NCBI GenBank assembly: GCA_965230955.1
Contig: OZ246404.1
Span: 33,184-97,183 of the forward strand
Reading direction: 5' to 3'
Source: an uncultured Candidatus Saccharibacteria bacterium
GTDB taxonomy: Bacteria; Patescibacteriota; CALEFQ01
Length of the DNA stretch: 64,000 nucleotides
Positions 1-64,000 of the stretch are shown in pieces. The notes beneath the pieces were generated by a model. It saw only the letters and a list, made by a program, of their open reading frames with translations. It searched no databases and was not told where the DNA came from. A program made the position numbers and the translations under genes. Each line of letters opens with the position of its first letter. The first letter of the stretch is position 1.

Positions 1-1
1 C

Positions 2-841
2 AATTATCATACGCGCGGGGCGGATTCGGAGCGCGATGAAAAATTTGTCCGGCAATTGGTTGATAATTGTAGTAGCCTCCGGCCGGACGCACCTACTCTG
101 GTTGTGAAGAATGCCCATATCGATTGTCGGCATGGTAATTTTGAAGAACAAGCCAGGGATATTCGGTATAAATTTTTTGAATCACTGGCGGAGCGTTCTC
201 GAGCCAATAAAATTGCCGTGGCCCATACCGCTGATGACCAGATTGAGACCATGATTCAAAATATGCTCCGTGGTTCGGGTTTGCGCGGGGCGTCGGGTAT
301 GCCGGTGAAACGGGGCGCGATTGTCCGGCCGCTTTTGTCGGTGTCGCGCCCGGAAATTTTGCGCTGGTTGCGGAGGCAAAAACAATCCTATCGCACCGAT
401 CGTTCCAATCGCGATCTCAAATATAATCGTAACTGGATTCGTTGGCGCCTACTCCCCTATTTGCGCCGGCGGGACAAAAGTTTTGGCGCGCGTCTGCAGA
501 CAGCCGGAAAAACATTTGACCGGGCGGCGGGTTTTCTGGAAAAGCAATCGGAGCGGCAACTCCGTCGCTTAAAAATTTCCGAGAAAGACGGAGTAATCAG
601 ATATCAGCTGGCGCCGTTTTTGGCTCTGCCGGAGATTTTACAGGGGGAGATGATTCGCGAGTTGCTTGGGCGCAAGGATATTGGGCAACGACATGTTCAG
701 GAGGTACTGTCCGTGCTCCATGGAGCACGATCGGGTAAGCGGAAAGAGTTCAAGGGAAGGGTAATAATTAAGCGGCGCGGAGAATTCGTTTTTCGGGAAA
801 ACCGCAGTGATAACCAATCACCGATCAAAAATGGCAAATAA
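2..841 (+). CDS. tilS: tRNA(Ile)-lysidine synthetase, C-terminal part; the frame is open from base 2, so the 5' end lies upstream of the window
   Basis: AHTADDQIETMIQNMLRGSG... resembles the TilS substrate-binding region; no stop upstream in frame. Confidence 0.7.
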   Translation, partial: NYHTRGADSERDEKFVRQLVDNCSSLRPDAPTLVVKNAHIDCRHGNFEEQARDIRYKFFESLAERSRANKIAVAHTADDQIETMIQNMLRGSGLRGASGMPVKRGAIVRPLLSVSRPEILRWLRRQKQSYRTDRSNRDLKYNRNWIRWRLLPYLRRRDKSFGARLQTAGKTFDRAAGFLEKQSERQLRRLKISEKDGVIRYQLAPFLALPEILQGEMIRELLGRKDIGQRHVQEVLSVLHGARSGKRKEFKGRVIIKRRGEFVFRENRSDNQSPIKNGK

Positions 842-957
842 ACTGCAAACTTACTTGCGCCAGCAAGCTCCAAGTTAAAAACCACTTAAGAAATTGGGAT
901 TTGGTAATTCACTTGATGTCGGATCTTGAAAATTTGATATTTTTCCCATCTGTCCAC

Positions 958-985
958 TTGACAACTCTCCTTTTTCAAGTAGAAT
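958..985 (+). promoter_or_regulatory. sigma70-like promoter, TTGACA-16-TAGAAT, upstream of the ftsH leader
   Basis: consensus-like hexamers read directly in the sequence. Confidence 0.4.
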
Positions 986-991
986 TGTGAC

Positions 992-1072
992 ATTCCTCCT
1001 AAAGCCCTGCTCACGGGTCATTGCGGCCCCTCCTCCGCAATTGGCTGCAGTGGGCAGGGTCCTGGGAGGAAT
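992..1072 (+). ncRNA. structured leader element: about 22-bp outer stem (TTCCTCCTAAAGCCCTGCTCAC / GTGGGCAGGGTCCTGGGAGGAA) enclosing an ATTGCGG/CCGCAAT hairpin with CCCCUCCU loop
   Basis: complementarity seen directly; sits between the promoter and ftsH. Confidence 0.35.
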
Positions 1073-1074
1073 TT

Positions 1075-1162
1075 AAAAAGTCAAAAGTCAAAAGTCAAAA
1101 AGCGAAAGTTAATGCTTAAAAAGTAACTTTTTACTTTTGACCTTTGACTTTTGACTTTTTTC
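1075..1162. repeat. family F1 inverted repeat (AAAAGTCAAAAGTCAAAAG ... CTTTTGACTTTTGAC)
   Basis: arms are reverse complements; same family at 31357, 53683, 44286. Confidence 0.9.
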
Positions 1163-1220
1163 AGCTTTACTGCCACAATGCTAGGGACTATTTTAATTCT
1201 TAATTTTTGCTAATAGTCTT

Positions 1221-3182: not shown

Positions 3183-3185
3183 CTT

Positions 3186-4695: not shown

Positions 4696-4728
4696 AAACA
4701 GCCGGCCGATCAGCGGGCTGTTTTTTTA
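4696..4728 (+). terminator. intrinsic terminator (CAGCC..GGCTG then T7)
   Basis: hairpin followed by a T-run. Confidence 0.6.
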
Positions 4729-7311: not shown

Positions 7312-7402
7312 TAGATAAAGATATAAGATGTAAGAATTAAGATATAAGAGGTAAGAAAAATAAAATCACCAATCTTACATTTTAAATCTTATATCTTAAG
7401 TC
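7312..7402. repeat. inverted repeat of AAGATATAAGA-type units (variant of family F2)
   Basis: GATATAAGATGTAAGAATTAAGATATAAGAGGTAAGA ... TCTTACATTTTAAATCTTATATCTTAAGTCTTA. Confidence 0.8.
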
Positions 7403-7406
7403 TTAG

Positions 7407-8747
7407 TTATAGTTCTCGCCAATCGATCATTTGATAAGTGCCCAGTGTCGGCCAGTGCGGAGGCGGTCCGTAGGTCAGCGAGGCGTCAAAATGGTAGTAG
7501 GTATTTGCATATCCGGAAACTACCCAGTCGTTCCATACTTTTTTGAAATACCCGACTTCGTTGTAGATTAGTCCGCCGTAAATATGAAGGCTGTTTTTGA
7601 TAATGTTGTTGTTGGTATCGCGGTAAATTTTTCCGTTTTGGGCGAACATGGTCGCGTAAATCACTGTATCAGTTGGCAGCCATCGTCCGACTTCAATATC
7701 ATTTTGAGCGATGATGCCCAGGGCGTCTTGGCCCATTCCGCGGGCGTAAGTGATATTGTTGTTGATGACTATGTTGGCGTTGCCGGTTTCCACCGGAAAA
7801 TCAGCGGCGGCTATCGTCAGTCTACCATTTAGAACGCCGTCGATCCAGACATTGTCTTCCACAAAAAGCACGCCGTTGGCCGGGATAGGGATGGTAGACG
7901 GATTATAATCTTCTTCCTGGTTGATTCCGTTTTGGGAAGCCGTGCGGACTCGCCTGATCCGGATAGTGCCGTTGCTTTGCAGAGTCAGGTGATAACCCTG
8001 TCGTCCCGATGGCGGAAGATAATATCCCCCTTGAGCCGGCTGGCTCAAGGTTTTTAGTTCGTTAAAATTAGAGAGATAATTGGCAAAAACGATCTCCCCC
8101 ACTCCCATGCGCCACAAATCGGTTGGTCCGCCTGTTCCCCAGACGCCGTCTTTTTCCGCCGGTGGCTGGCAGCCATGGATGGGTTGGCACCAATAACGAT
8201 CACGGGCGCTTTGCACTAGGCCTTCACTTAGGCCGTCAAAACGAATTCCGCCATTGGAGTGGATGTTGCCGTAGGTATGTGAATTAGAGGCAAAGGCCAT
8301 GTTGCTGTTGCACAAGAAAAGAAAATTTGCCAATGAAGGAATTCCCAATTGAGCTTCAATTGTTCGGCGGTAGCCGGGGGCGGAGTCCAGGTAGCCCTCG
8401 GAACGAATCGTCGCGATGGTCGAACCGGTTACCGGCTCGTCAATATAAATATCATAGTGTCCGATGACGTCACCGGCCGGGTCACGGTATTCGTGGTTGT
8501 ATGGGCCATGGGTTGGGGCGGAGGGACAAGGAGTATTGCCGTCGCAATAATCATTGGGATTATGAGTAAAGAGCCATTGATAATGATTGATACCGCTTTC
8601 CGCAATCTCAAAGGCCCGTTCCCGGTCTTGTTCCGCCACCGATGATTTGTTTAGCACCGTCACATATTGTAGTAAGCCGACAACAATGATCAAAAATATT
8701 CCGGTGAAAACAATAGCCAGAATAAGGATTGAACCTTTTTGTTTCAT
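7407..8747 (-). CDS. large pilus-associated protein with N-terminal signal-anchor (divergent minor-pilin/PilX-like)
   Basis: MKQKGSILILAIVFTGIFLII hydrophobic N-terminus without Glu5; location between the pseudopilins and pilM. Confidence 0.45.
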   Translation of the reverse strand: MKQKGSILILAIVFTGIFLIIVVGLLQYVTVLNKSSVAEQDRERAFEIAESGINHYQWLFTHNPNDYCDGNTPCPSAPTHGPYNHEYRDPAGDVIGHYDIYIDEPVTGSTIATIRSEGYLDSAPGYRRTIEAQLGIPSLANFLFLCNSNMAFASNSHTYGNIHSNGGIRFDGLSEGLVQSARDRYWCQPIHGCQPPAEKDGVWGTGGPTDLWRMGVGEIVFANYLSNFNELKTLSQPAQGGYYLPPSGRQGYHLTLQSNGTIRIRRVRTASQNGINQEEDYNPSTIPIPANGVLFVEDNVWIDGVLNGRLTIAAADFPVETGNANIVINNNITYARGMGQDALGIIAQNDIEVGRWLPTDTVIYATMFAQNGKIYRDTNNNIIKNSLHIYGGLIYNEVGYFKKVWNDWVVSGYANTYYHFDASLTYGPPPHWPTLGTYQMIDWREL

Positions 8748-8751
8748 ATGA

Positions 8752-9348
8752 TTAAAGATTTCTCAAATGCACAATTGTATCGATAACATATCGGCCGGCG
8801 TCTGTTCCGGGGGTGGAATCAACCGCCAGATGGATTCCGATTAATCTGATATTTGGTTCCAGAATCGGATTCATCGGGGCTTGGGTGCCGGTGTAACCGG
8901 CATCGTAGTACAAAAATATCGGTTCTGCGCCGTTGGCGACGTGCGTCGTGATCACCTGAACTGTTTCCGCAGCAGCGGGATAGATTTCACTGCCGGACTG
9001 GGGTTCAATGATTCCTTTATTGAACGTGGTGCCGATCAAGAAATAGCGAAGACGTTCAGTCCGACCGTCAAAATCATAGTCGGTGTAAATTGTCAGTGCT
9101 TGATTTTGGGCGTCGGCGATGGCGAAGGCGCCGTTTTCTCCCTGGACGACTCCGCGTAATTCTCGTTTCATTTTGTCTACGGCGCGCTGAGCTTCGCCAT
9201 AACTTTCTCCTTCGGTCAGGGTATAACCTTGAAACCGGTAATTATCAAGGATAAAAGTGGTCAGAGCGCCGGAAACAATCGCGATGATACTTATGACCAC
9301 CAGCAATTCAATTAAAGTCATTCCGCGTTGTGAACCGGTTTTAAACAT
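8752..9348 (-). CDS. prepilin-type N-terminal cleavage/methylation domain protein (pilin)
   Basis: QRGMTLIELLVVISIIAIVSG class III signal (G|MTLIEL). Confidence 0.8.
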   Translation of the reverse strand: MFKTGSQRGMTLIELLVVISIIAIVSGALTTFILDNYRFQGYTLTEGESYGEAQRAVDKMKRELRGVVQGENGAFAIADAQNQALTIYTDYDFDGRTERLRYFLIGTTFNKGIIEPQSGSEIYPAAAETVQVITTHVANGAEPIFLYYDAGYTGTQAPMNPILEPNIRLIGIHLAVDSTPGTDAGRYVIDTIVHLRNL

Positions 9349-11915: not shown

Positions 11916-11966
11916 GAGTCTTTAGTCGTTGGTCCTTGGCTCGGCTAGAGACGAAAGACCAAAGAC
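11916..11966. repeat. family F4 inverted repeat (AGTCTTTAGTC ... GACGAAAGACCAAAGAC) between pilB and pilC
   Basis: same family at 29213 and 61724. Confidence 0.85.
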
Positions 11967-15413: not shown

Positions 15414-15500
15414 GTAACAAGTAACAGGTAACAAGTAACAGGTAATAAGTAATGAAAGGTTGCCCTTTTTGTTACTCGTTACCTGTTACTTGTTACTTAG
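15411..15500. repeat. family F3 inverted repeat (GTAACAAGTAACAGGTAACA arms) between gpmI and the kinase gene
   Basis: arms reverse-complementary; same family at 40127. Confidence 0.85.
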
Positions 15501-17571: not shown

Positions 17572-17606
17572 CCCAGCCAGGTCAAGCGCGACCTGGCTGT
17601 TTTATT
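17572..17606 (+). terminator. intrinsic terminator CAGCCAGGTCAAGCGCGACCTGGCTG-TTTTATT
   Basis: perfect 10-bp stem followed by a T-run. Confidence 0.8.
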
Positions 17607-21646: not shown

Positions 21647-21723
21647 TAAACTTGCTTGGTGCGCTCGGCAAGAGTTGAACTTGCAATCTTCCCCTTAGGA
21701 CGGGGCTGCTCAATCCAGTTGAG
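21647..21723 (-). tRNA. tRNA-Arg (anticodon CCT)
   Basis: cloverleaf GCGCTCG..TAGCTCAACTGG..loop CT-CCT-AA..GTTCAACTC..CGAGCGC-A-CCA. Confidence 0.85.
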
Positions 21724-21827
21724 CTACGAGCGCAAATAGAGTAAGATGACTAGAACTTCGATTCTTTGTAACCTAAATATAGTCTAATACAGTTACTTTA
21801 TCAACTGTACACACGGTGTGTATATAA

Positions 21828-23673: not shown

Positions 23674-24144
23674 ATGGATATCTATTTTTACTTGTTTTTG
23701 ATTTCATTAGCTGTCGGCGCGGCGGCGCTGATTTTTGGTATATTGGTTAATCGTCGCGTCCGGTCTTTTGAGGAACGATTCCAACAATTTTTTGGCACCA
23801 AAAAAAGCCCCCATCTGAACGCGATAGTCATGCGTAATGTTGAGACGATCAAGAAAATGACCGGCGATATTGATAAGTTGTATGAAGTAGCGCAGGAATT
23901 GCAACAGATTGCTTTGCACAGCACGCAAAAAGTCGGCACACATTTTTATAATCCTTACGGCGACACCGGTGGTACGCTCAGCTTTTCAATCGCGATGCTG
24001 GATGCGGAGGATAATGGCATCGTTATTTCCAGTTTGCATTCGCGCTCCGGGACACAGGTTTACGCCAAAGCCATCGAGCGCGGACAATCGAAGCAGCATC
24101 TGACCGAAGAGGAAATTGAAGCGCTGCGACGGGCGAATAAATAA
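23674..24144 (+). CDS. membrane-anchored hypothetical protein (DUF4446-like)
   Basis: N-terminal TM; HFYNPYGDTGGTLSFSIAMLDAEDNGIVISS block recalled as DUF4446-like. Confidence 0.45.
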   Translation: MDIYFYLFLISLAVGAAALIFGILVNRRVRSFEERFQQFFGTKKSPHLNAIVMRNVETIKKMTGDIDKLYEVAQELQQIALHSTQKVGTHFYNPYGDTGGTLSFSIAMLDAEDNGIVISSLHSRSGTQVYAKAIERGQSKQHLTEEEIEALRRANK

Positions 24145-24235
24145 GACATTAAGAATATTAAGATATTAAGAACGTTAAGAGTCTGTGCTTTTCTTAATAC
24201 TCTTAATATCTTAATATTCTTAATCTCTTAATATC
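24145..24235. repeat. family F2 inverted repeat (TTAAGATATTAAGAAC units)
   Basis: GACATTAAGAATATTAAGATATTAAGAACGTTAAGA ... TCTTAATATCTTAATATTCTTAATC. Confidence 0.9.
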
Positions 24236-25591: not shown

Positions 25592-25776
25592 AGAAAATAA
25601 AAAATTTAAAATCTAAGTTAATTGAAGTAATTAGGGCTTTTGATTTTAACCTTTTGATTTCCTTTGGTTTTTGAATTTTAAGTTTTTAGATTTTCCCGGA
25701 TTGCGTGTTTGACTCGAATGTTGTAGAATATCCTTGCTTCTATTAAGTTTCTATGACAACATAACAGGTTATCTTT

Positions 25777-26034
25777 ATGGCTTCCGGCGCTGGCAAAAAA
25801 TTTGGTTACGGTGTTTTGCAGACCTTGGGTGCTTTTTTCGACAAAAAAGTCGTCCCGCCCTGGATTCCTTGGGCTATTTTCGGCGGTATCGGCGTCCTAA
25901 TTGCGTGGGCAAACAACTGGAATTGGTGGGCTTTGCTGAATGTGGTGGCGGTCGTTCTCTGGATTCTTTTCGCGATTGTCATGACTATGATTTTTGTCCG
26001 GCGGGCGCAGGAAGCAAAGAAAGCCAAGAATTAA
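25777..26034 (+). CDS. small two-TM membrane protein
   Basis: hydrophobic helices (WAIFGGIGVLIAW, VVAVVLWILFAIVMTMIF). Confidence 0.45.
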   Translation: MASGAGKKFGYGVLQTLGAFFDKKVVPPWIPWAIFGGIGVLIAWANNWNWWALLNVVAVVLWILFAIVMTMIFVRRAQEAKKAKN

Positions 26035-26111
26035 GATATAAGATATAAGAGGTAAGAAGTATAAATTTATACAAAATCGTAAGTAGTTGGTGTTAATTTT
26101 TAGCGGATTTC

Positions 26112-28273: not shown

Positions 28274-29219
28274 TTGTCAGCAAGTCAGTCGGTTTTTAGA
28301 GCGAGTCGACAATATTATGTTGTTGACCCATGTTTCGCCTGATATTGATGGTATTTCTTCGCTCTTGGCGCTGGGTCGAGGCCTGGAATCTGTCGGTAAA
28401 AAAGTCATCAGATTGTTGCCGGAAGATTTGCCGCGGCGCTTTTTTTTCTGGGCAGATTTGGATAAAATTGTGGATGAGCCGAGATGGCAAGAGGCCGAAG
28501 CGGTGGTGACTCTCGATTGCGGTGATTTGCCGCGGACCGGATTTGCTTATGAGCTCGGCCGAATCGGTAAACCGGTGGTCAATATCGACCACCATCCCCA
28601 AAAAGAACCGTTCGGAACCATTCATTTGGTGGAATCCGGAAAAACTTCCACCGCGGAAATAGTTTTTCACCTGTTGAATGAATTGGGAGTTGTGATCGAT
28701 AAGGCCTTGGCGGATATGTTATTGGCCGGTATAGTGTGTGATACTCAAAGTTTTCAGGTGGCTTCGACATCGGCCGAAGTCCTCAGTATCGCTTCGCAAT
28801 TGATGAGCAAGGGCGCGCGTATCCCGAAAATTACCAAGGAAATTTTTCGCGTCAAACCTATTACCGCTCTAAAATTATGGGGTCGGGTGTTGGATCGGGT
28901 GCAAGTTGACGCGACTACTCACATGGCTTATTCCGTCGTGCGCCAATCTGATTTTGATGAACTGGGAGTCGTTTCGCAGGATCTGGAGGGCGTGGTGGAT
29001 CTGATTAACGCCGTGACCGAAGCCAAATTTTCTTTGTTACTGACGGAAACCGGTGACAATATCGTCAAGGGTTCGCTTCGCTCGGAAAATTTCAAAGCGG
29101 TTGATGTTTCCCGAATTGCCGAGCTTTTCGGCGGCGGGGGACACAAACTCGCGTCCGGCTTTCGTTTTCCGGGAAAAATAGAAGAAAAAGACGGACGTTG
29201 GCTGATAAAGAGTCTTTAG
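28257..29219 (+). CDS. nrnA: DHH/DHHA1 phosphoesterase (NrnA-like nanoRNase/pAp phosphatase)
   Basis: HVSPDIDG, NIDHHP, GGGGHKLASG (DHHA1 GGGH); start ambiguous between 28206 and 28257. Confidence 0.75.
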   Translation: MTAQNNCQQVSRFLERVDNIMLLTHVSPDIDGISSLLALGRGLESVGKKVIRLLPEDLPRRFFFWADLDKIVDEPRWQEAEAVVTLDCGDLPRTGFAYELGRIGKPVVNIDHHPQKEPFGTIHLVESGKTSTAEIVFHLLNELGVVIDKALADMLLAGIVCDTQSFQVASTSAEVLSIASQLMSKGARIPKITKEIFRVKPITALKLWGRVLDRVQVDATTHMAYSVVRQSDFDELGVVSQDLEGVVDLINAVTEAKFSLLLTETGDNIVKGSLRSENFKAVDVSRIAELFGGGGHKLASGFRFPGKIEEKDGRWLIKSL

Positions 29220-29272
29220 CGTTTAGTCTTTAGCCATTGGCATCGGCCAAAGACTAAAGACCAAAGACTACT
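29213..29272. repeat. family F4 inverted repeat (AGTCTTTAGCGTTTAGTCTTTAG ... CAAAGACTAAAGACCAAAGACT)
   Basis: reverse-complementary arms. Confidence 0.85.
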
Positions 29273-30058: not shown

Positions 30059-30153
30059 ATCCAAAGTCCTAAATCGTCAAAGTTTTGAAATTCAACTTTA
30101 AGATTTCGAGCTTGTTTCTAATTTAGGATTTCGTGCTTAATAATTGTTATATG

Positions 30154-31359
30154 AACTGGAGTTTCATCACAAAGAATTGGATCGCAAAACTGCTGTGCCT
30201 TCTATTGGCGCTGGGGTTGTGGTTTTATATTGCCAATGAGGGATTTCAATTACAAAAAGTGGCCGGCGGCGTGCCGCTGGAGACCGCTAATTTAGACAAT
30301 GGTTTGGCGGTGACGGAAGATTTGGGGACGGTGCAATTGTCCGTTCGCCCTCAACAGGGATTGCGCAAGAGTATTTCTCCAGATAGTTTTGAAGCTTATG
30401 TCGACCTGGAAGGTCTGGGCGTCGGCGCTTACGAACTCCCGGTAAAGGTTTCGTCGAGCGATACTGAGATTCAGGTTTTGGAAATAAATCCGAGCAAGGT
30501 CAAGGTGACGCTTGATCGCAAAGTCACCAAAGCATTTTCAGTCACGGCTAAAGTTGAGGGGCAAGTCGGGACCGGCTACCTGGTGGGGGACTCAAAAATT
30601 TCTCCGACGGAAGTTGTTGTCTCGGGCGCCGAAGGTTTGGTCGGTTCGATTGCGACGGTCGTGGCGGATGTAAAATTGGTCGGCGATCTGTCGGAGATTC
30701 GTAAAACCGTTGAATTGAAAGCGATTTCCACGGCCGGCCAAGTGATAAAAAACGTGACCATTGAGCCGAAAACAGCCGAGATTACGATAGGCGTTTCCCA
30801 GGAATCCGATGTCAAAACGGTGGGTGTGAAAGTCAAAACCATAAACCAGCCCAAAGACGGTTATTTCATAAAAAGTTTGACGGCCAATCCGAGCACGGTT
30901 GTTTTGCGCGGCCAGCGCGACGTTTTGCAGCCGATCGAATATATCGAAACGAAAGAAGTGGATCTGAAAGATTTGACTAGCAGTACGGAGCGCACCGTCG
31001 GTCTGATTTTACCGGAGGGCGCTATCCTGGATGGTTCGGAAACCGTGAAAATTTCGATTGCCATTGACGGCAATGAATCGACCCGGGGCATGAGCGGCAT
31101 TTTTGAATTCAAAAACCTGGGCGGGAATCTGAAAATCGATTCTTTTTCGCCAACCAAGGCGGCTGTGACCGTCAAAGGCAAAGCGGGGCGTTTGTCCTCA
31201 TTGACCGAGCGCGATGTGCGTGTTATCGTTGACCTGGCCGGTAAAGGCGAAGGAACTTTTACGATCGGCCTGAACAAAGGTAATGTCGTTTTGCCGGATG
31301 AAGTGGCGCTGGAAAGTCTGGATGTGAAGGAGATACAAGTGACAATCAAAAATAAGTAA
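30154..31359 (+). CDS. cdaR: CdaA regulator CdaR (YbbR-like domain protein)
   Basis: N-terminal TM plus repeated YbbR-like beta-rich domains, immediately downstream of cdaA. Confidence 0.75.
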   Translation, partial: NWSFITKNWIAKLLCLLLALGLWFYIANEGFQLQKVAGGVPLETANLDNGLAVTEDLGTVQLSVRPQQGLRKSISPDSFEAYVDLEGLGVGAYELPVKVSSSDTEIQVLEINPSKVKVTLDRKVTKAFSVTAKVEGQVGTGYLVGDSKISPTEVVVSGAEGLVGSIATVVADVKLVGDLSEIRKTVELKAISTAGQVIKNVTIEPKTAEITIGVSQESDVKTVGVKVKTINQPKDGYFIKSLTANPSTVVLRGQRDVLQPIEYIETKEVDLKDLTSSTERTVGLILPEGAILDGSETVKISIAIDGNESTRGMSGIFEFKNLGGNLKIDSFSPTKAAVTVKGKAGRLSSLTERDVRVIVDLAGKGEGTFTIGLNKGNVVLPDEVALESLDVKEIQVTIKNK

Positions 31360-31428
31360 AAAGTCAAAAATCAAAAGTCAAAAGTTCGATGATCCGCTTT
31401 TGACCTTTGACTTTTAACTTTTGACTTA
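31357..31428. repeat. family F1 inverted repeat between cdaR and clpP
   Basis: AAGTAAAAAGTCAAAAATCAAAAGTCAAAAG ... CTTTTGACCTTTGACTTTTAACTTTTGACTT. Confidence 0.9.
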
Positions 31429-31433
31429 ATTTT

Positions 31434-32009
31434 ATGAATCTCATTCCAACTGTCATCGAAAAATCAAGCTTCGGCGAACGCGCCTACGACATTTATTCCC
31501 GCTTGCTCAAGGATCGTATCATTATGCTGGGCGGCCCGGTGGATGACGACGTGGCCAATATCATTATCGCCCAGATGCTTTTTCTGGAAAGCGAAGACAA
31601 GACCAAGGACATACATTTTTACATCAATAGCCCCGGCGGATCGGTCACGGCGGGTTTGGCGATTTATGACACAATGCAGCATATCAAGCCAAACGTTTCT
31701 ACGATCTGCGTCGGTCTGGCGGCTTCCATGGGCGCTTTCCTTTTGGCGGCGGGACACCCGGGCAAGCGTTTTGCTCTGCCGAACTCCGAGATTCTGATTC
31801 ATCAAGTCATGGGTGGAGCCGAGGGTCAGGCGGTTGATGTCGAGATTCGCGCGCGCCATATGATTCGTATCAAGGAAAGATTGGAACGGCTCTTGGCAAA
31901 GCACACCGGCCAACCCTTGAAAAAAGTGGCCGATGATACCGACCGCGACTATCACATGGACGCGGAAGAAGCGCGGAAGTATGGGATTATTGATAAAGTA
32001 TTAAAGTAA
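31434..32009 (+). CDS. clpP: ATP-dependent Clp protease proteolytic subunit
   Basis: ClpP fold with [14 protein letters not shown] active-site Ser region. Confidence 0.95.
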
Positions 32010-32125
32010 TTCAAAATTCAGAATTCAAAATGCAAAATCAGGGCGGGCGACAGGGCTCGCCCTTTGTGTTTGACAATCAATAGAGTAAGGGTAAGATGGG
32101 GGCAGCAACCTCAGGAGGTGAAAGT

Positions 32126-36526: not shown

Positions 36527-36527
36527 A

Positions 36528-36600: not shown

Positions 36601-36604
36601 ATTC

Positions 36605-37402: not shown

Positions 37403-37625
37403 AGAAGATATTAAGAAGAATAAGAGTATTAAGATATTAAGAACATTAAGATATTAAGAACATTAAGATATTAAGAATGTTAAGATATTAAGAGTATTAA
37501 GAGGCTGGTAAACAAAGGGAATTTAATATGAGCGCTAACCTCTTAACGTTCTTAATATCTTAATTCTCTTAATATCTTAGTATCTTAACGTTCTTAATTC
37601 TCTTAATATCTTAATATCTTTTCCG
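37400..37625. repeat. giant family F2 inverted repeat, about 105-nt arms of TTAAGATATTAAGAAC units
   Basis: left arm 37400-37505, loop about 37506-37527, right arm to 37625. Confidence 0.9.
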
Positions 37626-40126: not shown

Positions 40127-40190
40127 GCAGGTAACAAGTAACAGGTAACAAATTGGAAAGACTTTTCCTTTTTGATACCTGTTACTTAAA
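40127..40190. repeat. family F3 inverted repeat (imperfect)
   Basis: CAGGTAACAAGTAACAGGTAACAAATTGGAAAGACTTTTCCTTTTTGATACCTGTTACTT. Confidence 0.7.
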
Positions 40191-40842: not shown

Positions 40843-40877
40843 AAAAAAGCAGCTGCGTCGAACAGCTGCTTTTTGTT
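40843..40877. terminator. bidirectional terminator AAAAAAGCAGCTGCGTCGAACAGCTGCTTTTTGTTTG
   Basis: hairpin plus T-run. Confidence 0.8.
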
Positions 40878-44206: not shown

Positions 44207-44280
44207 TGGAGCGGGTAACGGGATTCGAACCCGTGTGTCTAGCTTGGAAGGCTAGCGCACTACCACTGTGCTATACCCGC
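44207..44280 (-). tRNA. tRNA-Gly (anticodon TCC)
   Basis: GCGGGTA..GCAC AGTGGTA GTGC..loop CT-TCC-AA..CGGGTTCGAATCCCG..TACCCGC-T-CCA. Confidence 0.9.
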
Positions 44281-44285
44281 GGAAT

Positions 44286-44316
44286 AAGTAAAAAGTCAAA
44301 AATCAAAAGTCAAAAG
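44286..44316. repeat. family F1 half-element (single arm, identical 31-mer to 31355-31385)
   Basis: AAGTAAAAAGTCAAAAATCAAAAGTCAAAAG without a partner arm. Confidence 0.8.
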
Positions 44317-46573: not shown

Positions 46574-46659
46574 AAAATAATTAATAATTCAGAATTCAAA
46601 ATGCAAAATCATTTTTTACGCTACCGGGATAATCAAATTTGAAACAGATATAGGCAAAA

Positions 46660-49802: not shown

Positions 49803-49879
49803 TGGTCGGGGATGAGGGATTCGCACCCTCGATCTCCTGCTCCCAAAGCAGGCGCCTTAGGCTACTGGGCCAATCCCCG
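49803..49879 (-). tRNA. tRNA-Pro (anticodon TGG)
   Basis: CGGGGAT..CCTGC TT-TGG-GA GCAGG..GAGGGTGCGAATCCCTC ATCCCCG-A-CCA. Confidence 0.9.
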
Positions 49880-50086: not shown

Positions 50087-50707
50087 ATGCGCTATCCCAA
50101 TTTCAATCATGAGAGAGAGCTGACCAAGCTCGGCTACCGAGTTGTCGCCGGAGTGGACGAAGCGGGTCGGGGTGCCTGGGCCGGGCCGGTAGTAGCGGCG
50201 GCGGTGGTTTTGCCGGTGGATTTTTCGATTCGCGGGATCGCTGATTCAAAAAAAATCACAGCGATTAAACGAGCGGAACTTTATCGGGAATTAATCGGGG
50301 CCGTCGATTGGGGCGTTGGGATCGTGCCTAATACCGTGATTGATCAGATTAATATATTACGCGCCACGCGAGTGGCGATGCGGCAAGCTTTAAGCGAGCT
50401 GAAGGCCGCGCCTGATTTTGTCTTAATAGACGCGGTTCGGATCGGTGATCTGCCCTGTCGACAGCGCTCGGTCATCAAAGGCGACTACAAAGTTATGTCG
50501 ATTGCCGCGGCGTCGATTATCGCCAAGGTGACGCGCGATAATTTATTGCGCGATTTGCACCGGAGTCTGCCGAATTATCGTTTTGACTTGCATAAAGGCT
50601 ACGGGACGAAAGTGCATCAGGCGATGATTAAGAAATATGGGGTGAGTGGGGCGCATCGGAAAACGTATAAACCCTTGGCGAAAATTGAGAATGAGCAGTT
50701 ACTTTAG
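50087..50707 (+). CDS. rnhB: ribonuclease HII
   Basis: VAGVDEAGRGAWAGPVVAAAV catalytic motif. Confidence 0.9.
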   Translation: MRYPNFNHERELTKLGYRVVAGVDEAGRGAWAGPVVAAAVVLPVDFSIRGIADSKKITAIKRAELYRELIGAVDWGVGIVPNTVIDQINILRATRVAMRQALSELKAAPDFVLIDAVRIGDLPCRQRSVIKGDYKVMSIAAASIIAKVTRDNLLRDLHRSLPNYRFDLHKGYGTKVHQAMIKKYGVSGAHRKTYKPLAKIENEQLL

Positions 50708-50903
50708 AAAAATTAAAGCTTAAAAATGCCAAAATCTAAAAAAATTAAAAGGCAAAAAACCAAAACCATTTAAACTTTTAGCCTTAAATTTCTTTTAGAT
50801 TTTGATATTTTTAAGCTTTAAATTTTCTAGTAACTCTGTTGGCAACTATCCTATTTTGTGGTATTGTCTAAATACATATTAAGATAATTTTTTCACCAAT
50901 ATT

Positions 50904-51536: not shown

Positions 51537-51698
51537 GTCGAACTCCGCGCAAAATCAAGGATGATGCACCGCTGGATAAATACGGCGGGAGTATCGCTAC
51601 CGTGTTGGGCGCCGGGGCGGCTATCTGGGCCTTTTTCCGAGTGGCTTTTACCATCAGCGACGGCGTGGCCAAATTGAAAAACGGCCGCAAGAAGTAAT
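51534..51698 (+). CDS. 54-aa small TM protein overlapping the methyltransferase stop (ATGA)
   Basis: ATGA overlap; TM segment GAGAAIWAFFRVAFTI. Confidence 0.3.
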
Positions 51699-51794
51699 TC
51701 AAAATTCAGAATTTAAAATGCAAAATGGGGGGATAGCGAATTATTTTGCATTATGAATTATGTATTTTGAATTTTAATAGGGAGGGCTTTTTTT

Positions 51795-52154
51795 ATGGCG
51801 CGAAATGTTGGCGACCTAGGGGAAGAGATAGCCAAGAAATTTTTGGCGAATAAGGGCTACGAAATTATCGCCCGGAATTATTATGCCGGACGGCGGGGCG
51901 AAGTCGATCTGATCGCGATTGCGGGAATCAATATTATTTTTGTGGAAGTGAAAACCCGAACCAAAACAAAATTCAGTGTCGGGCTGGAGGCGGTGGACGG
52001 ATATAAATTAAAAAAATGGTACTGGTCGGCGGAAGATTTTATTATGAAAAATCCGGTCTATGAAAATCACCACTGGCGTTTTGACGTCGTGGAGATTTTT
52101 TTAGATTGGGAATGCCGGAGAGCGAAAGTGAAGTGGATTAAGGAGGTTTACTAA
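51795..52154 (+). CDS. yraN: YraN/UPF0102-family endonuclease
   Basis: GEEIAKKFLANKGYEIIARNYYAGRRGEVDLIAI...FVEVKTR pattern. Confidence 0.8.
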   Translation: MARNVGDLGEEIAKKFLANKGYEIIARNYYAGRRGEVDLIAIAGINIIFVEVKTRTKTKFSVGLEAVDGYKLKKWYWSAEDFIMKNPVYENHHWRFDVVEIFLDWECRRAKVKWIKEVY

Positions 52155-52280
52155 ATTCGAAATCCGAATATCGAAATTCGAAACAATACTCAAATTTGAA
52201 ATACTAAATCAAAAATGTCTAGATATTTTAATTTGTGATTTTGAATTTGTTTCGAATTTCGGATTTTGTGCTTTGAATTT
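52155..52280. repeat. family F6 inverted repeat (AATTCGAAATCCGAATATCGAAATTCGAAAC ... GTTTCGAATTTCGGATTTTG)
   Basis: reverse-complementary arms. Confidence 0.85.
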
Positions 52281-53617: not shown

Positions 53618-53682
53618 ATTCTTATCCCGAATCCGGCAGATCATTTGTGGCTAGAACCAGGCGTTCTAGCTTCTTTTAAAGC

Positions 53683-53755
53683 CAAAAGTCAAAGCTCAAA
53701 AGTCAAAAGTTTCGATGACGGAACTTTTGACCTTTGACTTTTTACTTTTGACTTA
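53683..53755. repeat. family F1 inverted repeat inside the nusA 5' UTR
   Basis: CCAAAAGTCAAAGCTCAAAAGTCAAAAG ... CTTTTGACCTTTGACTTTTTACTTTTGACTT. Confidence 0.9.
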
Positions 53756-53761: not shown

Positions 53762-54982
53762 ATGTTCGGAAAAAACTTTTTGGAAGCAATCAATCAGTTA
53801 GTAGCGGAAAAAAACATCGACCGCAAGATCGTAATTACCACGATCGAGGCGGCGCTGGCGGCGGCTTTCCGTAAGGATTACGGTACGCCGGATCAAAATA
53901 TCAAAGTGGAACTCGATGAAAAGACGGGTAATTTTAAGGTTTACGATGAAAAGAATGTCGTCAAAGAAATCGACGAAGAAATGGAAAAACGAGCTCGCGA
54001 ATATATGTTGGTAGCGGACGCGAAAAAAGCCAAGGATTACAAAAAGGTCACCGGCGCCAAGGGCGAAGTCAAAGAAGGCGACATACTCCGCAAGGAAATC
54101 ACGCCTCAGGAAGCCAAATTCGGCCGCATCGCCGCCCAGACCGCTAAACAGGTCATTATTCAGCGTATTCGAGAAGCGGAGCGCGACGCGATTTACAATG
54201 AATTTAAAGATAAAAAAGGCGAAGTGCTCAATTCGACCGTCCAGCGGGTCGAGGGCCGCAATATTTTCATGGATCTGGGATCGGCTGTCGGGATTATGTA
54301 TCCGCCGGATCAAATTCGCCGAGAACGCTACACTATCGGCCAGCGTTACAAAGTGTTTGTCAATGAAGTGCGTACCGGCCCCAAGGGACCGGAAATTTTA
54401 GTGTCGCGCGCGGCGCCCGGACTGGTCAAAAAATTATTTGAATTGGAAGTCCCGGAGATTTTCGCCAAGACGGTTGAAATCAAAGCTTTGGTGCGCGAAG
54501 CAGGTTCTCGGTCAAAGATGGCGGTATCCGCCAATGATGAAAGCGTTGATCCGATTGGTTCGTGCGTGGGACAAAAGGGAACGCGCGTGCAAGCCGTCAA
54601 GGCCGAGCTCGGCGGCGAAAATATCGATATTATCGTTTGGGATGAAGACGTGAAAAAATTTATTCCCAATTCTCTGTCGCCGGCCAAGGTGGCGAAAATC
54701 CATCTCGATTCGGAGCATAAAGAAGCTGTGGTTGAAGTCGAAGAAGATCAGCTGTCATTGGCGATTGGCAAGGAAGGTCAAAATGTTCGATTAGCCGCCA
54801 AATTGACCGGCTGGCGCATCGATATTGCCAAGGTGGGAGAAAAAAAGGACGATAAGAAAACCGACCAGAAGGATGACAAAAAAGAGGAGAAAAAAGAAGA
54901 AAAGAAAGTAGAGAAGAAAGATAAGCCGGCCGGAGAAAATGAAAAAAAGGAAGAAAAAGCTAAGCCGAAAGAGAAGAAATAA
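53762..54982 (+). CDS. nusA: transcription termination/antitermination factor NusA with Lys/Glu-rich C-terminal tail
   Basis: S1 and two KH domains (GRIAAQTAKQVI..., VGQKGTRVQAV, IGKEGQNVRLAAKLTGW). Confidence 0.95.
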   Translation: MFGKNFLEAINQLVAEKNIDRKIVITTIEAALAAAFRKDYGTPDQNIKVELDEKTGNFKVYDEKNVVKEIDEEMEKRAREYMLVADAKKAKDYKKVTGAKGEVKEGDILRKEITPQEAKFGRIAAQTAKQVIIQRIREAERDAIYNEFKDKKGEVLNSTVQRVEGRNIFMDLGSAVGIMYPPDQIRRERYTIGQRYKVFVNEVRTGPKGPEILVSRAAPGLVKKLFELEVPEIFAKTVEIKALVREAGSRSKMAVSANDESVDPIGSCVGQKGTRVQAVKAELGGENIDIIVWDEDVKKFIPNSLSPAKVAKIHLDSEHKEAVVEVEEDQLSLAIGKEGQNVRLAAKLTGWRIDIAKVGEKKDDKKTDQKDDKKEEKKEEKKVEKKDKPAGENEKKEEKAKPKEKK

Positions 54983-55110
54983 GATATTAAGAGTATTAAG
55001 ATATTAAGACTTTAAGAATTAAATATTTTTTTGTTTGTCATTCTGGGGAATAAGTAACCGCCGGTGGCGGCCCGAGGATGACAGCGTTACTTTTACTTTA
55101 ACTTAATCCT

Positions 55111-59235: not shown

Positions 59236-59344
59236 TAAAATCATAAAATTTAAAGGAAATTTAAAGCTAAAAATATAAAGGGCGCTTTGGATTTTTAACT
59301 TCAAATTTCTTTTAAATTTTTGGTTTTAAGCTTTGGATTTTATT

Positions 59345-61286: not shown

Positions 61287-61363
61287 TGGTGACCTCGAGA
61301 GGATTCGAACCTCTGATCTCCAGCTCCGGAGGCTGGCGCTCTATCCAACTGAGCTACGAGGCC
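61287..61363 (-). tRNA. tRNA-Arg (anticodon CCG)
   Basis: GGCCTCG TA GCTCAGTTGGATAGAGC..CCAGC CT-CCG-GA GCTGG..AGAGGTTCGAATCCTCT CGAGGTC-A-CCA. Confidence 0.9.
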
Positions 61364-61371
61364 CTACTACG

Positions 61372-61440: not shown

Positions 61441-61630
61441 CGCGAACGAAGTGAGCGCGAAGTAGGGAGCTACGAGGCCATGACCCCGCCCAGGCGGGGA
61501 AATCAAAATTTAAAAATCAAAGTTTAAAGGAAATACAAAGTTTAAAATCAAAAAATTTGATTTATAATTTTTGATTTCTACTTCTTTTGAACTTTTTATT
61601 TTGAGCTTTAACTTCCGCCGTAGCGGCGGT

Positions 61631-61718
61631 ATGGTGCCTGGGGCGGGACTCGAACCCGCAATCCCGATTAGGGAATCAGATTTTAAGTCTGACGCGTATA
61701 CCAATTCCACCACCCAGG
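61631..61718 (-). tRNA. tRNA-Leu (anticodon TAA), long variable arm
   Basis: GCCTGGG..TCAGA CT-TAA-AA TCTGA..variable arm..GCGGGTTCGAGTCCCGC CCCAGGC-A-CCA. Confidence 0.9.
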
Positions 61719-61723
61719 CGAAC

Positions 61724-61790
61724 TAGTCTTTAGTCATTAGTTCCTAGTCGTTCGGGGCTAAAGACAAAAGACTAATGACTACAGACTGAT
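61724..61790. repeat. family F4 inverted repeat between tRNA-Leu and tRNA-Cys
   Basis: AGTCTTTAGTCATTAGT...AAAGACAAAAGACTAATGACT. Confidence 0.85.
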
Positions 61791-61799
61791 TGGAGGCGT

Positions 61800-61875
61800 G
61801 GGCGGGAGTCGAACCCGCGAATGACGGTTTTGCAAACCGTTGCCTTAGCCACTTGGCTACCACGCCGACTTGCTT
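61800..61875 (-). tRNA. tRNA-Cys (anticodon GCA)
   Basis: GGCGTGG TA GCCAAGTGGCTAAGGC..ACGGT TT-GCA-AA ACCGT..GCGGGTTCGACTCCCGC CCACGCC-T-CCA. Confidence 0.9.
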
Positions 61876-61973
61876 GAGATATGGAAATAATACTAAATAG
61901 ACGGGCTTAAGTCAACGCGCGATTTATCGGATCAAACGAAAAGCCACTCGAACGATTGAGTGGCTTTTCCGAT

Positions 61974-62531
61974 TTACTGGCTCGCGCCAGCAATTTCGAT
62001 TATTTCTACTTTCAGCGGGCGTCGCCCGAAGGCGAAAGCCTCTTTTTTACTAAGTAGGGCAATATCGAAGTGATTACCTTTGATGGCGCCACCGCGGTCT
62101 TCGACACGAAAGATCATATCTGGATCATAGTCTGGCAGACGGATTAAAGTGCCGAATTTGTATTGCGGGGGAGCGGCAATGGTGCCGTAGTGCAGGGTGC
62201 TGCCGGAAGCTGTTCGCCACGGATCGCCGTCGCACTCGTCCACGCTAGGCGTGTAGGCGGTAAAGTTACCGGTCAGAGTTTGGGTAACGCGGATATCTTC
62301 CAAAGGGATGTCACGCAATTCTCCGCGGGCTACCTGCGCCAGGCGGGTCGCTTTACGCTGTTCTTCCAGCGCTTGGCGTTCCTGCTGTTTTTGGAGGGCT
62401 AATTTTTCATACTGCTTTTTGCGCATCAATTGCTTGATCTCGGACAAGGCTTTGCGATTTTCATAGACATTGTAGTCAACTCCGAAATCTTGCGGACCCT
62501 GATTAAGTTCAGCCGCAAAGGCCTGATTCAT
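61974..62531 (-). CDS. 3D-domain (MltA/YuiC-like) cell-wall-binding protein with N-terminal signal and coiled-coil
   Basis: TASGSTLHYGTIAAPP...RVEDRGGAIKGNHFDIAL 3D-domain pattern. Confidence 0.65.
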   Translation of the reverse strand: MNQAFAAELNQGPQDFGVDYNVYENRKALSEIKQLMRKKQYEKLALQKQQERQALEEQRKATRLAQVARGELRDIPLEDIRVTQTLTGNFTAYTPSVDECDGDPWRTASGSTLHYGTIAAPPQYKFGTLIRLPDYDPDMIFRVEDRGGAIKGNHFDIALLSKKEAFAFGRRPLKVEIIEIAGASQ

Positions 62532-63013
62532 GGCAAAAAGAGGAAATTGAAAGTATAGAATGCAGAAAACTGAACCGATGGCAGTTACTAGTTTTCTAAT
62601 ATGTTTGGTGGTCGAACGGCGGATTTACCCTGATCGAAACAATCGGAGTTGAGGGAATCACGTCGTTTCGCTAATGAGCCTCTAAAAAACTCGGTTAGTT
62701 ACAACCGAGCTCTTTTAGAGAACCCGGCATTGTATCATATATAATCTATATTGTCAATAGAAAGGGGGTATTTCCAACAAAAAAAGGCTTATATAAGCCC
62801 AAAAAGCATGATTTAGATTCGCAATCAGCACATTATAGGGCGGGAGTGATATGGCGTCAAGGCAAACACGGCAGAAAAGCTTAAAATTCAAGGCTTAAAA
62901 TCTAATAGAAATTTAAAGTTAAAAGCTTAAAAGAGTTGTTTTAAGCTTTATTTTTTGAATTTCCTTTAGATTTTAAGCTTTTAGCTTTAGATTTTGTGAT
63001 ATACTTCTCCCAT

Positions 63014-64000
63014 ATGCCCTCTTTTCTCATGAGTGAATTTAAGAGCCAGCGCGCATTTCAGGCGATTATTATCGTCTTGTGTCTTTTTTTGATTGCCTTT
63101 TTTGGCTTCAAGACAATGAGCGATCCCGATATCGGATGGCATCTTACGGCCGGTCAAGAGATTCTGGCGCGCGGCGGGATTCCGCAGAGTGATTGGTTTA
63201 CGAATAGTTTTGCCAATTTCGGCTGGATTGACCATGAATGGTTGACCAATATTCTTTTGTTTAAGCTCTATTCACTGGGCGGCCCTTTTTTACTGAGCGT
63301 TTTATTCAGTGGCTTGATGGTTTTTCTTTTTGCTTATCTTGTCCCGAAAACGGTCGACTCGCCTCTACCGGTTTACCAAAATTTAATTATCGGGACGCTG
63401 GGCGCGGGTGTAGTCACATTTTATGTCGGGGTACGCCCGCAATTGCTGACGTTGCTGGGGGTGGCTCTGTTACTAATCATATTCCAAAAATTGCGCCGAA
63501 ATCCGTCTTCGCGAGCGATCTACTGGCTACCGGTTCTCTTTCTGGTTTGGGCTAATCTCCATGCCAGTTTCCCGGTCGGTTTGGGAATTTTTGCTCTCTT
63601 GCTGATTTTCGAAGCCATGAAACGGCGGGTGTTGGATAAGAACGGGGAATTCTGGTTTGCGGAACAAAAAAACACTTTAGTGCCAGCGGTGATCAAAAAA
63701 CTCTGTTTTATTTTCCCGCTGGCGATAGCCGCGACCTTAGTTAATCCCTATTGGTGGCGGATATACGTTGAGATCTATCGGACCCTGTTTGATCGCTATG
63801 GGACGCGCGAGATTATGGAGTGGCTGGCACCGGATATCACCCAGACGTACGGGATGGTTTTTGCCTTTTATCTCTGTTTTTTACTGATCGTGTTTTTCTT
63901 CCGGCGCGCCAAAATTGATCTGACTCAATTTGTTTTGTTTTTGGCTTTCTTGGTGGCGTCGCTGATGAGTCTGCGCCACATTCCTTTATTTGTCATCGTG
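63014..64000 (+). CDS. polytopic membrane protein, partial (continues past the window); possible GT-C-type glycosyltransferase
   Basis: open frame with 8+ TM helices; function inferred only from topology. Confidence 0.4.
   Translation, partial: MPSFLMSEFKSQRAFQAIIIVLCLFLIAFFGFKTMSDPDIGWHLTAGQEILARGGIPQSDWFTNSFANFGWIDHEWLTNILLFKLYSLGGPFLLSVLFSGLMVFLFAYLVPKTVDSPLPVYQNLIIGTLGAGVVTFYVGVRPQLLTLLGVALLLIIFQKLRRNPSSRAIYWLPVLFLVWANLHASFPVGLGIFALLLIFEAMKRRVLDKNGEFWFAEQKNTLVPAVIKKLCFIFPLAIAATLVNPYWWRIYVEIYRTLFDRYGTREIMEWLAPDITQTYGMVFAFYLCFLLIVFFFRRAKIDLTQFVLFLAFLVASLMSLRHIPLFVIV

Follow-up and report, generated by a model that had tools for sequence, protein, structure and literature searches.

What are the long palindromes, built from short repeated words, that occupy so many of the gaps between genes in the 64,000 nucleotides analysed here (the window: positions 33,184 to 97,183 of the forward strand of contig OZ246404.1, assembly GCA_965230955.1, from an uncultured Candidatus Saccharibacteria bacterium)? 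It is well supported that they are the palindromic form of the heptanucleotide arrays known as simple sequence repeats (SSRs) or short tandemly repeated repetitive (STRR) sequences, present here in a genome of the Patescibacteria (candidate phyla radiation, CPR). Their dynamics can be observed directly, as units slip, arms are mirror images of each other, copies pass from spacer to spacer, and elements are rapidly gained, lost and replaced. With regard to their role, the explanation that is favoured, and that appears rather probable though by no means secure, is that they are tolerated, self-propagating DNA palindromes, the transcripts of which form intercistronic stem-loops with at most effects like those of repetitive extragenic palindromic (REP) sequences. 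The original prediction, made by inspection of the letters, had missed both the SSR/STRR identity of the words and the fact that the same words occur in many phyla (PMC4692102, PMC4679880). New here is the palindromic, whole-spacer form of this known repeat class in a Patescibacteria genome; literature searches found no description of elements of this kind in CPR genomes, which does not disprove the existence of one.

The hairpins and their arrangement

The palindromes of tandem words are real. An inverted-repeat tool returned 59 pairs within 120 nt, the longest of which are composed of repeated words, and in an ungapped scan 12 inverted repeats scored at least 16, as against none in each of 10 first-order Markov simulations. 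Folding of the spacers gave z-scores down to about -10, and the table of Tandem Repeats Finder is dominated by period 7, with mirror-paired period-7 arrays along the whole window (the periods are 7 or 14 in most arrays and 8/17 in the family F2). Every position at which a palindrome had been predicted carries a tandem-word array, and 18 of these 19 fold as long stems of 19-85 bp, with minimum free energies (MFE) of -16 to -85 kcal/mol. The remaining one, at 46578, is only a single arm without a partner (MFE -1.6), and the half-elements that had been recognised at 44286 and 54981 are single arms indeed. One hairpin (30064-30131) and two single arms (26012-26061 and 32008-32038) were absent from the earlier list, and the catalogue now comprises 19 hairpins and 5 single arms, with a share of 3.1% in the window and of about 24% in its intergenic bases. 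None of the 24 elements reaches into a long open reading frame (ORF) further than the last codons. Comparison with Logan contigs, five independent ones from three runs (assemblies SRR10083293, SRR10083294 and SRR10083296), gave 100% identity over nine hairpins, two single arms and part of a tenth hairpin, and the hairpins are therefore not an assembly artefact; that Logan contigs end inside F1 and F2 arrays is what is expected of multi-copy repeats.

The elements appear to follow one plan, in which words of 7 nt (in some cases 8-9 or 11 nt) make up an A-rich run that a short loop joins to its T-rich mirror image. The units of the arms mostly have 7 nt, with 8-9 nt in F2 and 11 nt in some members of F7, and the GC content of the hairpins is 17-51% (17-35% in most, 42-51% in F4). 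The arms mirror each other down to the order of variant units, and in the hairpin at 24142-24230 the unit lengths 8-9-8-9 are reversed in the other arm. Independent slippage in each arm is insufficient for such a mirrored order, which requires inverted duplication, arm-to-arm copying or selection for pairing. As to the seven word families that had been proposed, the words of F1 to F6 are correct, whereas F7 is a loose compositional AT-rich class whose members share at most 12 nt. True copy families, which have non-periodic strings of 16-34 nt in common, are F1, F2, a 7-nt variant of F2, F3 and F5 (in a shuffled null the 99th percentile is 11 nt and the maximum 13 nt), and F4 is marginal with a shared string of 13 nt. 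The elements are the following.

1075..1160: F1 hairpin of AAAAGTC / GACTTTT words in the tilS-ftsH spacer, in the ftsH leader, downstream of a promoter-like TTGACA-16-TAGAAT at 958-985
7314..7408: F2-variant hairpin of AAGATAT-type 7-nt words that fills the gap from a pilX-like stop to the pilM start, both on the minus strand
11918..11966: F4 hairpin of AGTCTTT words, T-rich arm first, that fills the 60-nt pilB-pilC spacer
15414..15496: F3 hairpin of GTAACAA/GTAACAG words that takes up exactly the stretch from the phosphoglycerate mutase stop (15497) to an in-frame histidine kinase ATG (15413)
24142..24230: F2 hairpin (TAAGATAT), the 8-9-nt units of which recur as mirror images in the two arms; it opens with the three bases of the stop codon of a DUF4446 gene
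25593..25695: loose F7-type AT-rich hairpin after a DAGK-like gene
26012..26061, plus strand: AAGATAT-word single arm at the end of a small ORF that lies upstream of infB, with 20 nt in common with the hairpin at 7314
29209..29272: F4 hairpin in the nrnA-cdaA spacer, the nrnA stop lying inside the first word
30064..30131: hairpin in the cdaA-cdaR spacer
31346..31437: F1 hairpin from the cdaR stop to the clpP start, where Logan contigs break
32008..32038, plus strand: F5 single arm that starts in the clpP stop codon, followed by a GC-rich canonical terminator-like hairpin (32040-32063)
37405..37620: largest F2 hairpin, with a stem of about 85 bp, beginning 3 nt past the ymdB stop
40136..40187: F3 hairpin in the divergent spacer between a glycosyltransferase gene (minus strand) and a DUF308 gene (plus strand)
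44283..44316, plus strand: F1 single arm, 3 nt from the 5' side of tRNA-Gly (minus strand)
46586..46609, plus strand: F5 single arm without partner arm, just upstream of the start of an mgtE-like gene (minus strand)
50697..50835: loose F7-type hairpin of 55 bp that overlaps the last codons and the stop of rnhB
51696..51773: F5 hairpin of AATTCAA / AATGCAA words upstream of a yraN-like gene
52153..52280: F6 hairpin of AAATTCG / AAATCCG words that starts in the yraN stop codon
53679..53754: F1 hairpin that directly follows a canonical terminator-like hairpin (53649-53671) and lies 7 nt upstream of the nusA start
54980..55027, plus strand: F2 single arm, the nusA stop codon forming its first three bases; it is also where Logan contigs of the same population start
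59238..59327: loose F7-type hairpin with 11-nt AAATTTAAAGG units in the spacer between the trigger factor and endonuclease IV genes
61499..61595: AT-rich hairpin of 7/14-nt words from tRNA-Arg to tRNA-Leu
61719..61793: F4 hairpin that takes up the whole spacer from tRNA-Leu to tRNA-Cys
62882..62994: loose F7-type hairpin in a divergent spacer, its end about 1-14 nt from the next gene start at 62996 (the stem end is alternatively 62981)

The distribution of the hairpins depends on the direction of the flanking genes. Counted in spacers of at least 40 nt (n=57: 35 co-directional, 12 divergent, 10 convergent), with rough gene boundaries from our own ORF calls, and within 64 kb of one genome in which members of a family are non-independent data points, they occupy 17 of the co-directional, 2 of the divergent and none of the convergent spacers (Fisher p=0.007). 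The view that most intergenic gaps are occupied thus holds for co-directional spacers (21 of 35 including single arms) but not overall (24 of 57). At 12 of the 17 co-directional hairpins and at three single arms, the A-rich arm starts at most 5 nt from the upstream stop codon or contains it, the first bases of the first word often being TAA or TAG, and seven hairpins have the stop and the next start (or tRNA end) both within about 12 nt of the feet of the stem. In 16 of the 19 hairpins, the A-rich arm comes first and the T-rich arm points toward the next start or tRNA (p=0.004). Read in the direction of the neighbouring gene, each of the five single arms is either A-rich and behind a stop or T-rich and ahead of a start. 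This rule of position and orientation shows that selection filters where and how the elements sit, which does not imply that the individual copies are useful.

A promoter role was considered as well. The TTGACT of F1 arms makes a plausible -35 box in one case only (1151-1179, upstream of ftsH) and the remaining word families have no TTGAC, for which reasons the promoter role was dropped as a general explanation.

Copying, slippage and turnover

Copies at unlinked loci are recognisable by more than their words. The left arm of 31346-31437 and the single arm beside tRNA-Gly (44283..44316) are identical over 34 nt (from 31350 and 44283, respectively), two F2 copies have a string of 25 nt in common and two F5 arms one of 24 nt, and there is a further shared string of 20 nt. 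The two F1 paralogs 31346-31437 and 53679-53754 have the loop motif TTCGATGA in common, as well as the unit order TTTTGAC-CTTTGAC-TTTT(A/T)AC-TTTTGAC-TTAA, from which it follows that elements or arms have been copied between unlinked spacers. An F1 copy of a relative, which lies ahead of a different gene (L019, apparently the same metagenome-assembled genome (MAG) as L162), ends with the same GACTTAATTTTATG. The suggestion that the palindromes resemble miniature repeat elements is borne out by this behaviour, as unlinked copies keep the order of variant units and relatives are polymorphic in presence, family and unit number.

For the comparison with relatives, syntenic loci were obtained by a CdaA search and contig look-ups and then compared junction by junction. 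The CdaA identities range from 90 to 64% (L169 and L159-L162 90-89%, L163-L165 69%, L166 66%), and the flanking genes are housekeeping genes in a synteny that is conserved across the relatives. The presence/absence polymorphism that the original prediction had asked about was looked for at orthologous junctions and found, together with replacement of one family by another and changes in unit number.

DUF4446-bactofilin junction: F2 hairpin in the window; F2 with fewer units in L159; none in L166
nrnA-cdaA junction: F4 hairpin in the window; F4 with more units in L159; GATCTTT/AATCTTT words in L169; GAAAATA/GAAGATA words in L163; overlapping genes in L166
cdaA-cdaR junction: 68-nt hairpin in a 74-nt spacer in the window; 1-nt gap in L159 and L163; 159-nt word hairpin in L169; non-tandem palindrome in L166
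cdaR-clpP junction: F1 hairpin in the window; 137-nt hairpin of CCAATAT-type words in L159; overlapping genes in L163; 9-nt gap in L166

The unit number thus differs between the window and L159 at two junctions, and the F2 hairpin of 24142..24230 has orthologs with other unit numbers in both L159 and L160. At the junction of 25593..25695, L159 has a hairpin of different words. Words are uniform within a genome (AATCTTT at two junctions of L169, CCAATAT-type words at two of L159) and differ across genomes (AGTCTTT in the window vs GATCTTT/AATCTTT at two L169 loci). L159 and L160 encode one and the same CdaA, their identity over 11.4 kb is 99.25%, and the sole indel inside the aligned region is a gain or loss of about 10 nt in the 5' arm of the F2 hairpin. 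Among NusA relatives from a metagenome scan (36-65% identity), which are too distant for the comparison of orthologous junctions and served as a negative control, there is one word hairpin in 335 kb. No target-site duplications could be defined; the gene ends differ between filled and empty junctions. The word hairpin at the cdaA-cdaR junction of L169 (4546-4704) encloses a second, GC-rich palindrome in its loop, so that one element lies inside another.

By their appearance, the elements are products of processes at the DNA level rather than designed RNA signals. If the favoured explanation holds, units would be gained and lost by replication slippage, for which the difference between L159 and L160 provides one event between strains, and the mirror-image arms would stem from inverted duplication or from template switching within the hairpin. 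Whole elements or arms would be copied between unlinked spacers, with a presumed enzymology for both the matching of arms and the dispersal. The places in which they accumulate are restricted, and so is their orientation, with the A-rich arm at the upstream stop and the T-rich arm toward the next start or tRNA. Under this explanation, transcribed copies should form long AU-rich stem-loops in polycistronic RNAs, and any effect of these would most likely be REP-like, i.e. a 3' barrier, a processing structure or a modulated coupling of neighbouring cistrons; termination is an unlikely effect. Most copies are judged to be tolerated passengers that are not individually required.

Selection at the RNA level was addressed by strand tests, in which G:U and A:C mismatches and the folding energies of the two strands were compared. 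If pairing were kept in the sense transcript, mismatches should favour G:U on the sense strand, and no such excess was found among the mismatches of the hairpins (G:U 19 vs A:C 33; with 52 informative mismatches and several paralogous hairpins, the power of this test is low). Of 16 co-directional hairpins, 6 fold better as the sense strand and 10 as the antisense strand. The mismatch pattern fits arms that are kept alike by DNA copying and carries no sign of selection for RNA structure, and the role in RNA processing or stability that the original prediction had suggested thus gains no support from this sequence-level test. Several points weigh against tolerated, self-propagating palindromes, and the low power of the G:U test is one of them. 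Purely neutral DNA would not be expected to be anchored at stop codons or to obey so strong a rule of orientation and position, which speaks for selection via transcription or translation and leaves room for a function. Among 40 window ORFs scanned, none matched a transposase family that might supply the copying enzyme. The context test rests on rough gene calls and on 10 convergent spacers. Finally, the elements are stable on a short timescale, since nine hairpins and part of a tenth are identical in the three Logan runs, which probably represent one population.

Known repeat classes and competing explanations

Knowledge of tandem heptamers in bacteria dates back to 1990. The elements of the window have the features by which heptanucleotide SSRs and STRRs are recognised, namely head-to-tail units of about 7 nt in at least three copies, an intergenic position with at least six word types in one genome, unit numbers that vary at the same junction between close relatives, and a fixed orientation to the start codon as in the TAACTGA repeats. 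The STRRs of heterocystous cyanobacteria and the 'long SSRs' of Mrazek et al. 2007, by what PMC4692102 and PMC4679880 relate of them, likewise consist of tandem 7-nt units between genes, with several words per genome, lineage-specific abundance and unit numbers that vary between close relatives. Heptameric SSRs are over-represented in bacteria, and three heptanucleotide repeats have been described in Calothrix (PMC4692102). Even the words recur in cyanobacteria, with (GACTTTT)n in Nostoc, Calothrix, Scytonema and Okeania, and TTCAAAA/TTTTGAA in Nostoc, where TTTTGAA repeats, the F5 word, lie near starts (bioRxiv 10.1101/2022.06.06.494920). In the cyanobacterial loci, however, arrays are mostly single or have distant partners, whereas here 19 hairpins with short loops stand against 5 single arms, and unlike in the STRR case the host has a small Patescibacteria genome in which the elements fill spacers from stop codon to start codon. 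The TAACTGA repeats of marine Beggiatoaceae, cyanobacteria and Bacteroidetes are also intergenic heptamers of fixed (forward) orientation, a few nt from start codons, with few ribosome-binding sites nearby and a patchy distribution across phyla, and in several cases relatives lack them and have shorter, repeat-free spacers (PMC4679880). They differ in that one dominant, direct word prevails, with one inverted repeat in 170 sets, whereas at least six words are found here, which are palindromic and mainly anchored at stops. The GGGAATC / GGGGA(T/C)T repeats of Xanthomonas and Nostoc are intergenic heptamer SSRs that at times form inverted, stem-loop-capable pairs and vary widely in length and sequence at the same junctions in close species (PMC4692102), but they are G-rich and quadruplex-prone, while the elements here are AT-rich and the inverted arrangement is the rule.

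A collection scan with an F1 arm as query, with one genome per species and not meant as a census, gave at least 120 loci. Among the matches listed, F1 words occur in cyanobacteria (Nostoc, Calothrix, Scytonema, Okeania, Aerosakkonema), Bacteroidota, Acidobacteriota, Chloroflexota, gammaproteobacterial MAGs and several CPR groups, and 30 of 120 form a word hairpin or inverted pair; of the 22 compact ones, 16 have the A-rich arm first, and in 12 one of the two stem feet carries a stop codon. For GACTTTT-type arrays among these matches (n=151), the T-rich strand faces a nearby start codon in 41 cases and the A-rich strand in 10 (p=1.5e-5), and after a stop codon the A-rich strand prevails with 54 vs 24 (p=9e-4), these being counts from crude ORF calls in an ascertained sample. 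That the same word obeys the same rule in distant phyla suggests a common constraint via transcription or translation. A Sphingobacteriales MAG (L085, 324-6688) has four different word hairpins within 8 kb, a density similar to or above that of the window, and dense palindromic heptamer arrays are thus not confined to CPR. Nor are heptamer arrays always non-coding, as in a Saccharibacteria MAG (L024, 7765-7783, minus strand) an (AAAAGTC)4 array apparently lies inside the 5' end of an rplX-like ORF, to which it would, as read by eye, add a Lys/Ser-rich N-terminal stretch. The window is an unusually clean case, as the genome is compact and nearly all arrays are palindromic, stop-anchored and placed in tightly packed operons, and in close relatives the same junctions occur filled, filled with other words, or empty. 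In practice, such elements break short-read assemblies, and annotation may mistake them for terminators or small RNAs.

Shine-Dalgarno-like motifs are scarce in the window. Among 55 ORFs of at least 100 aa, 7 have one at the first start codon and 12 if alternative starts are allowed, and their frequency in genes downstream of hairpins did not differ from that in the other window genes, matches being rare throughout. The organism seems to be a low user of Shine-Dalgarno sites, like Bacteroidota and cyanobacteria, in which heptamer arrays are also common.

Outside the heptamer repeats, the closest model for hairpin doublets with decayed singlets is given by the REPINs (REP doublets forming hairpins; PMC3116915). 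With REPs, bacterial interspersed mosaic elements (BIMEs) and REPINs, the elements share that they are extragenic, multi-copy, imperfect palindromes arranged as inverted doublets with decayed singlets, lie within operons and after stops, and are plausibly selfish, but REPs are GC-rich, have a conserved consensus of 20-40 nt and are tied to the transposase RAYT (REP-associated tyrosine transposase), whereas no such consensus was found here, most arms having 17-35% GC, tandem 7-nt units and membership in one of several unrelated families. None of the hairpins matches a curated RNA family in Rfam 15 at the gathering score. Integron attC sites were ruled out by the housekeeping flanks in conserved synteny and, by eye, by the lack of a shared core, DNA uptake sequences (DUS/USS) by the several unrelated words, none of which occurs in convergent spacers or deep in genes, and CRISPR by gene context and sequence.

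The main rival explanation is that the hairpins are selected RNA elements of operons, comparable to REPs or BIMEs, which block 3' exonucleases or guide cleavage by RNase III or RNase Y, with the result that adjacent cistrons differ in mRNA stability, or which couple translation of the downstream gene to termination on the upstream one; it deserves to be kept in view, though we regard it as doubtful. It would account well for the 5' arms at the stop codons, for the orientation rule that holds across phyla, and for the seven hairpins with stop and start close to the feet, several of which stand at junctions that overlap or abut in relatives, and leader accessibility should matter where Shine-Dalgarno sites are rare. 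Stems of 19-85 bp are long enough as RNase III substrates, and RNase Y and YmdB are encoded in the window, but the stems are much longer than needed, the sense strand has no G:U excess, the antisense strand folds better in most hairpins, copies also lie in divergent promoter regions (40136, 62882), and close relatives have no hairpin, or one of an unrelated word family, at the same junctions. A quite unlikely but specific proposal is that the hairpins serve as translational-coupling bridges in an organism with low Shine-Dalgarno use, with the stop at the 5' foot and the next start at the 3' foot. The stem would keep stop and start spatially as close as they are in the overlapping ATGA/TAATG junctions of relatives, and a ribosome that terminates would open the A-rich arm, whereby the U-rich arm ahead of the start would become available for (re)initiation. 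If this were true, the 35-year-old STRR puzzle would gain a testable function, 'A-rich after the stop, U-rich before the start'. The 7-nt period also recalls CspB, which binds with one protein per heptamer (discussed in PMC4679880), and U-rich arrays stand directly before starts in many phyla (PMC4679880; bioRxiv 10.1101/2022.06.06.494920), so that the arrays could be binding sites of a heptamer-reading protein, either an oligonucleotide-binding (OB) fold of the CspA or S1 type on the U-rich pre-start arm, to which the low Shine-Dalgarno use would be suited, or a DNA-binding or nucleoid protein. This is very improbable, given that many words coexist in one genome and change between close relatives, that in the hairpin form the A-rich arm would sequester the U-rich one, and that no candidate for the protein was found.

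Transposition concerns the copying step, as an alternative to template switching, and not the identity of the elements. The hairpins would be non-autonomous elements similar to miniature inverted-repeat transposable elements (MITEs) or REPINs, moved by a transposase encoded elsewhere, e.g. one of the IS200/IS605-type Y1 family (RAYT) with single-stranded hairpins as its substrate. Mobility of this kind would agree with the unlinked paralogs of whole hairpins, which keep their variant-unit order and two of which have a common loop motif, as well as with the presence/absence at orthologous junctions, the assembly breaks at elements and the single arms that resemble decayed REPIN 'singlets' (PMC3116915). 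It is nonetheless unlikely, as each of at least six unrelated word families would need to be recognised, neither target-site duplications nor conserved termini can be defined in the junction comparisons, the internal tandem units and the changes in their number point to slippage, and the same words occur in very distant phyla. Each whole element is one inverted repeat, the window contains no insertion sequence, and the 40 scanned ORFs have no match to RAYT either.

The least probable of the explanations is that the hairpins are ordinary or bidirectional intrinsic terminators or attenuators, the stem of which is extended by the A-rich and U-rich arms. They do resemble Rho-independent terminators in the A-rich 5' side and the U-rich 3' side, an order that 16 of 19 hairpins have on either strand, and the claim that many lack a U-run is only half true, since a run of T4-T6 follows the stem, as judged by eye, in about half of the hairpins (1075, 24142, 37405, 51696, 52153, 59238). 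Unlike the short GC-rich stem with a direct U-run of an intrinsic terminator, however, the stems are long and AU-rich, with 17-35% GC in most, and instead of marking the ends of transcription units and convergent pairs, the hairpins are missing from all 10 convergent spacers, at least five of which have canonical terminator-like sites (a GC-rich stem and a T-run), as have several other 3' ends (examples are 39113-39138, 40844-40874, 17574-17599 and 4703-4720). A terminator consensus scan found such sites elsewhere and picked up only the inner part of 53679 among the hairpins, and this hairpin directly follows a canonical terminator-like one. Hairpins lie inside conserved operons, as in the pilus cluster (pilB-pilC) and between tRNAs, downstream of promoter-like sites in the ftsH and nusA leaders (consensus-like promoters are also present in the window), and between cistrons that overlap or abut in relatives (cdaA-cdaR, cdaR-clpP). 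The original prediction was right in that they are not simply terminators, and they are not the terminators of this genome.

Further features of the window

A terminator-like hairpin AGCGCTTCCTTCCGGAGGCGCT with a T-run occurs in two identical copies 767 nt apart (32586-32607 and 33353-33374), each followed by a TTGACA promoter-like site, and the relative L162 has a similar hairpin. The rny-ymdB spacer holds a long GC-rich hairpin (36527-36604), the sequence and shape of which are kept in L166 (15996-16076), which has 66% CdaA identity, while L163 (10786-10852) has a plain terminator-like hairpin in its place; the GC-rich hairpin may be a conserved regulatory RNA structure of that unit. At the 3' end of the nusA gene (54878-54957), a 12-nt coding repeat (AAAAAAGAAGAG) gives rise to a Lys/Glu-rich tail, and the F2 single arm follows directly.

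The window has 47% GC and a positive GC skew along its full length. It encodes a type IV pilus cluster (PilB, PilC, PilM and pilins), TilS, FtsH, phosphoglycerate mutase, a CCA-adding enzyme, IF-2, NrnA, CdaA, a YbbR-domain protein that is here named CdaR, ClpP, RNase Y, YmdB, RNase HII, NusA, trigger factor and a membrane pyrophosphatase. The nearest named CdaA homologues come from MAGs labelled 'Patescibacteria group', Parcubacteria and Andersenbacteria, and an exact search for the ClpP of the window gave no record. Six tRNA genes (21657-21733, 44207-44280, 49803-49879, 61287-61363, 61632-61719 and 61791-61866) are the only Rfam 15 matches at the gathering score in the whole window, and all six encode the 3'-CCA, despite the presence of a gene of the CCA-adding/poly(A) polymerase family at 19903-21501.

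In L163, a tandem duplication of about 840 bp lies just after clpP (7493-8909), the duplicated module consisting of two small ORFs with promoter-like and terminator-like sites. L164 and L165, the CdaA of which is identical to that of L163, have one copy of the module each and differ from each other there. A 769-aa protein encoded at 41724-44033 of the window has FG-GAP repeats and a He_PIG Ig-like domain and no NCBIfam match, and by its domains may be a surface or adhesion protein.

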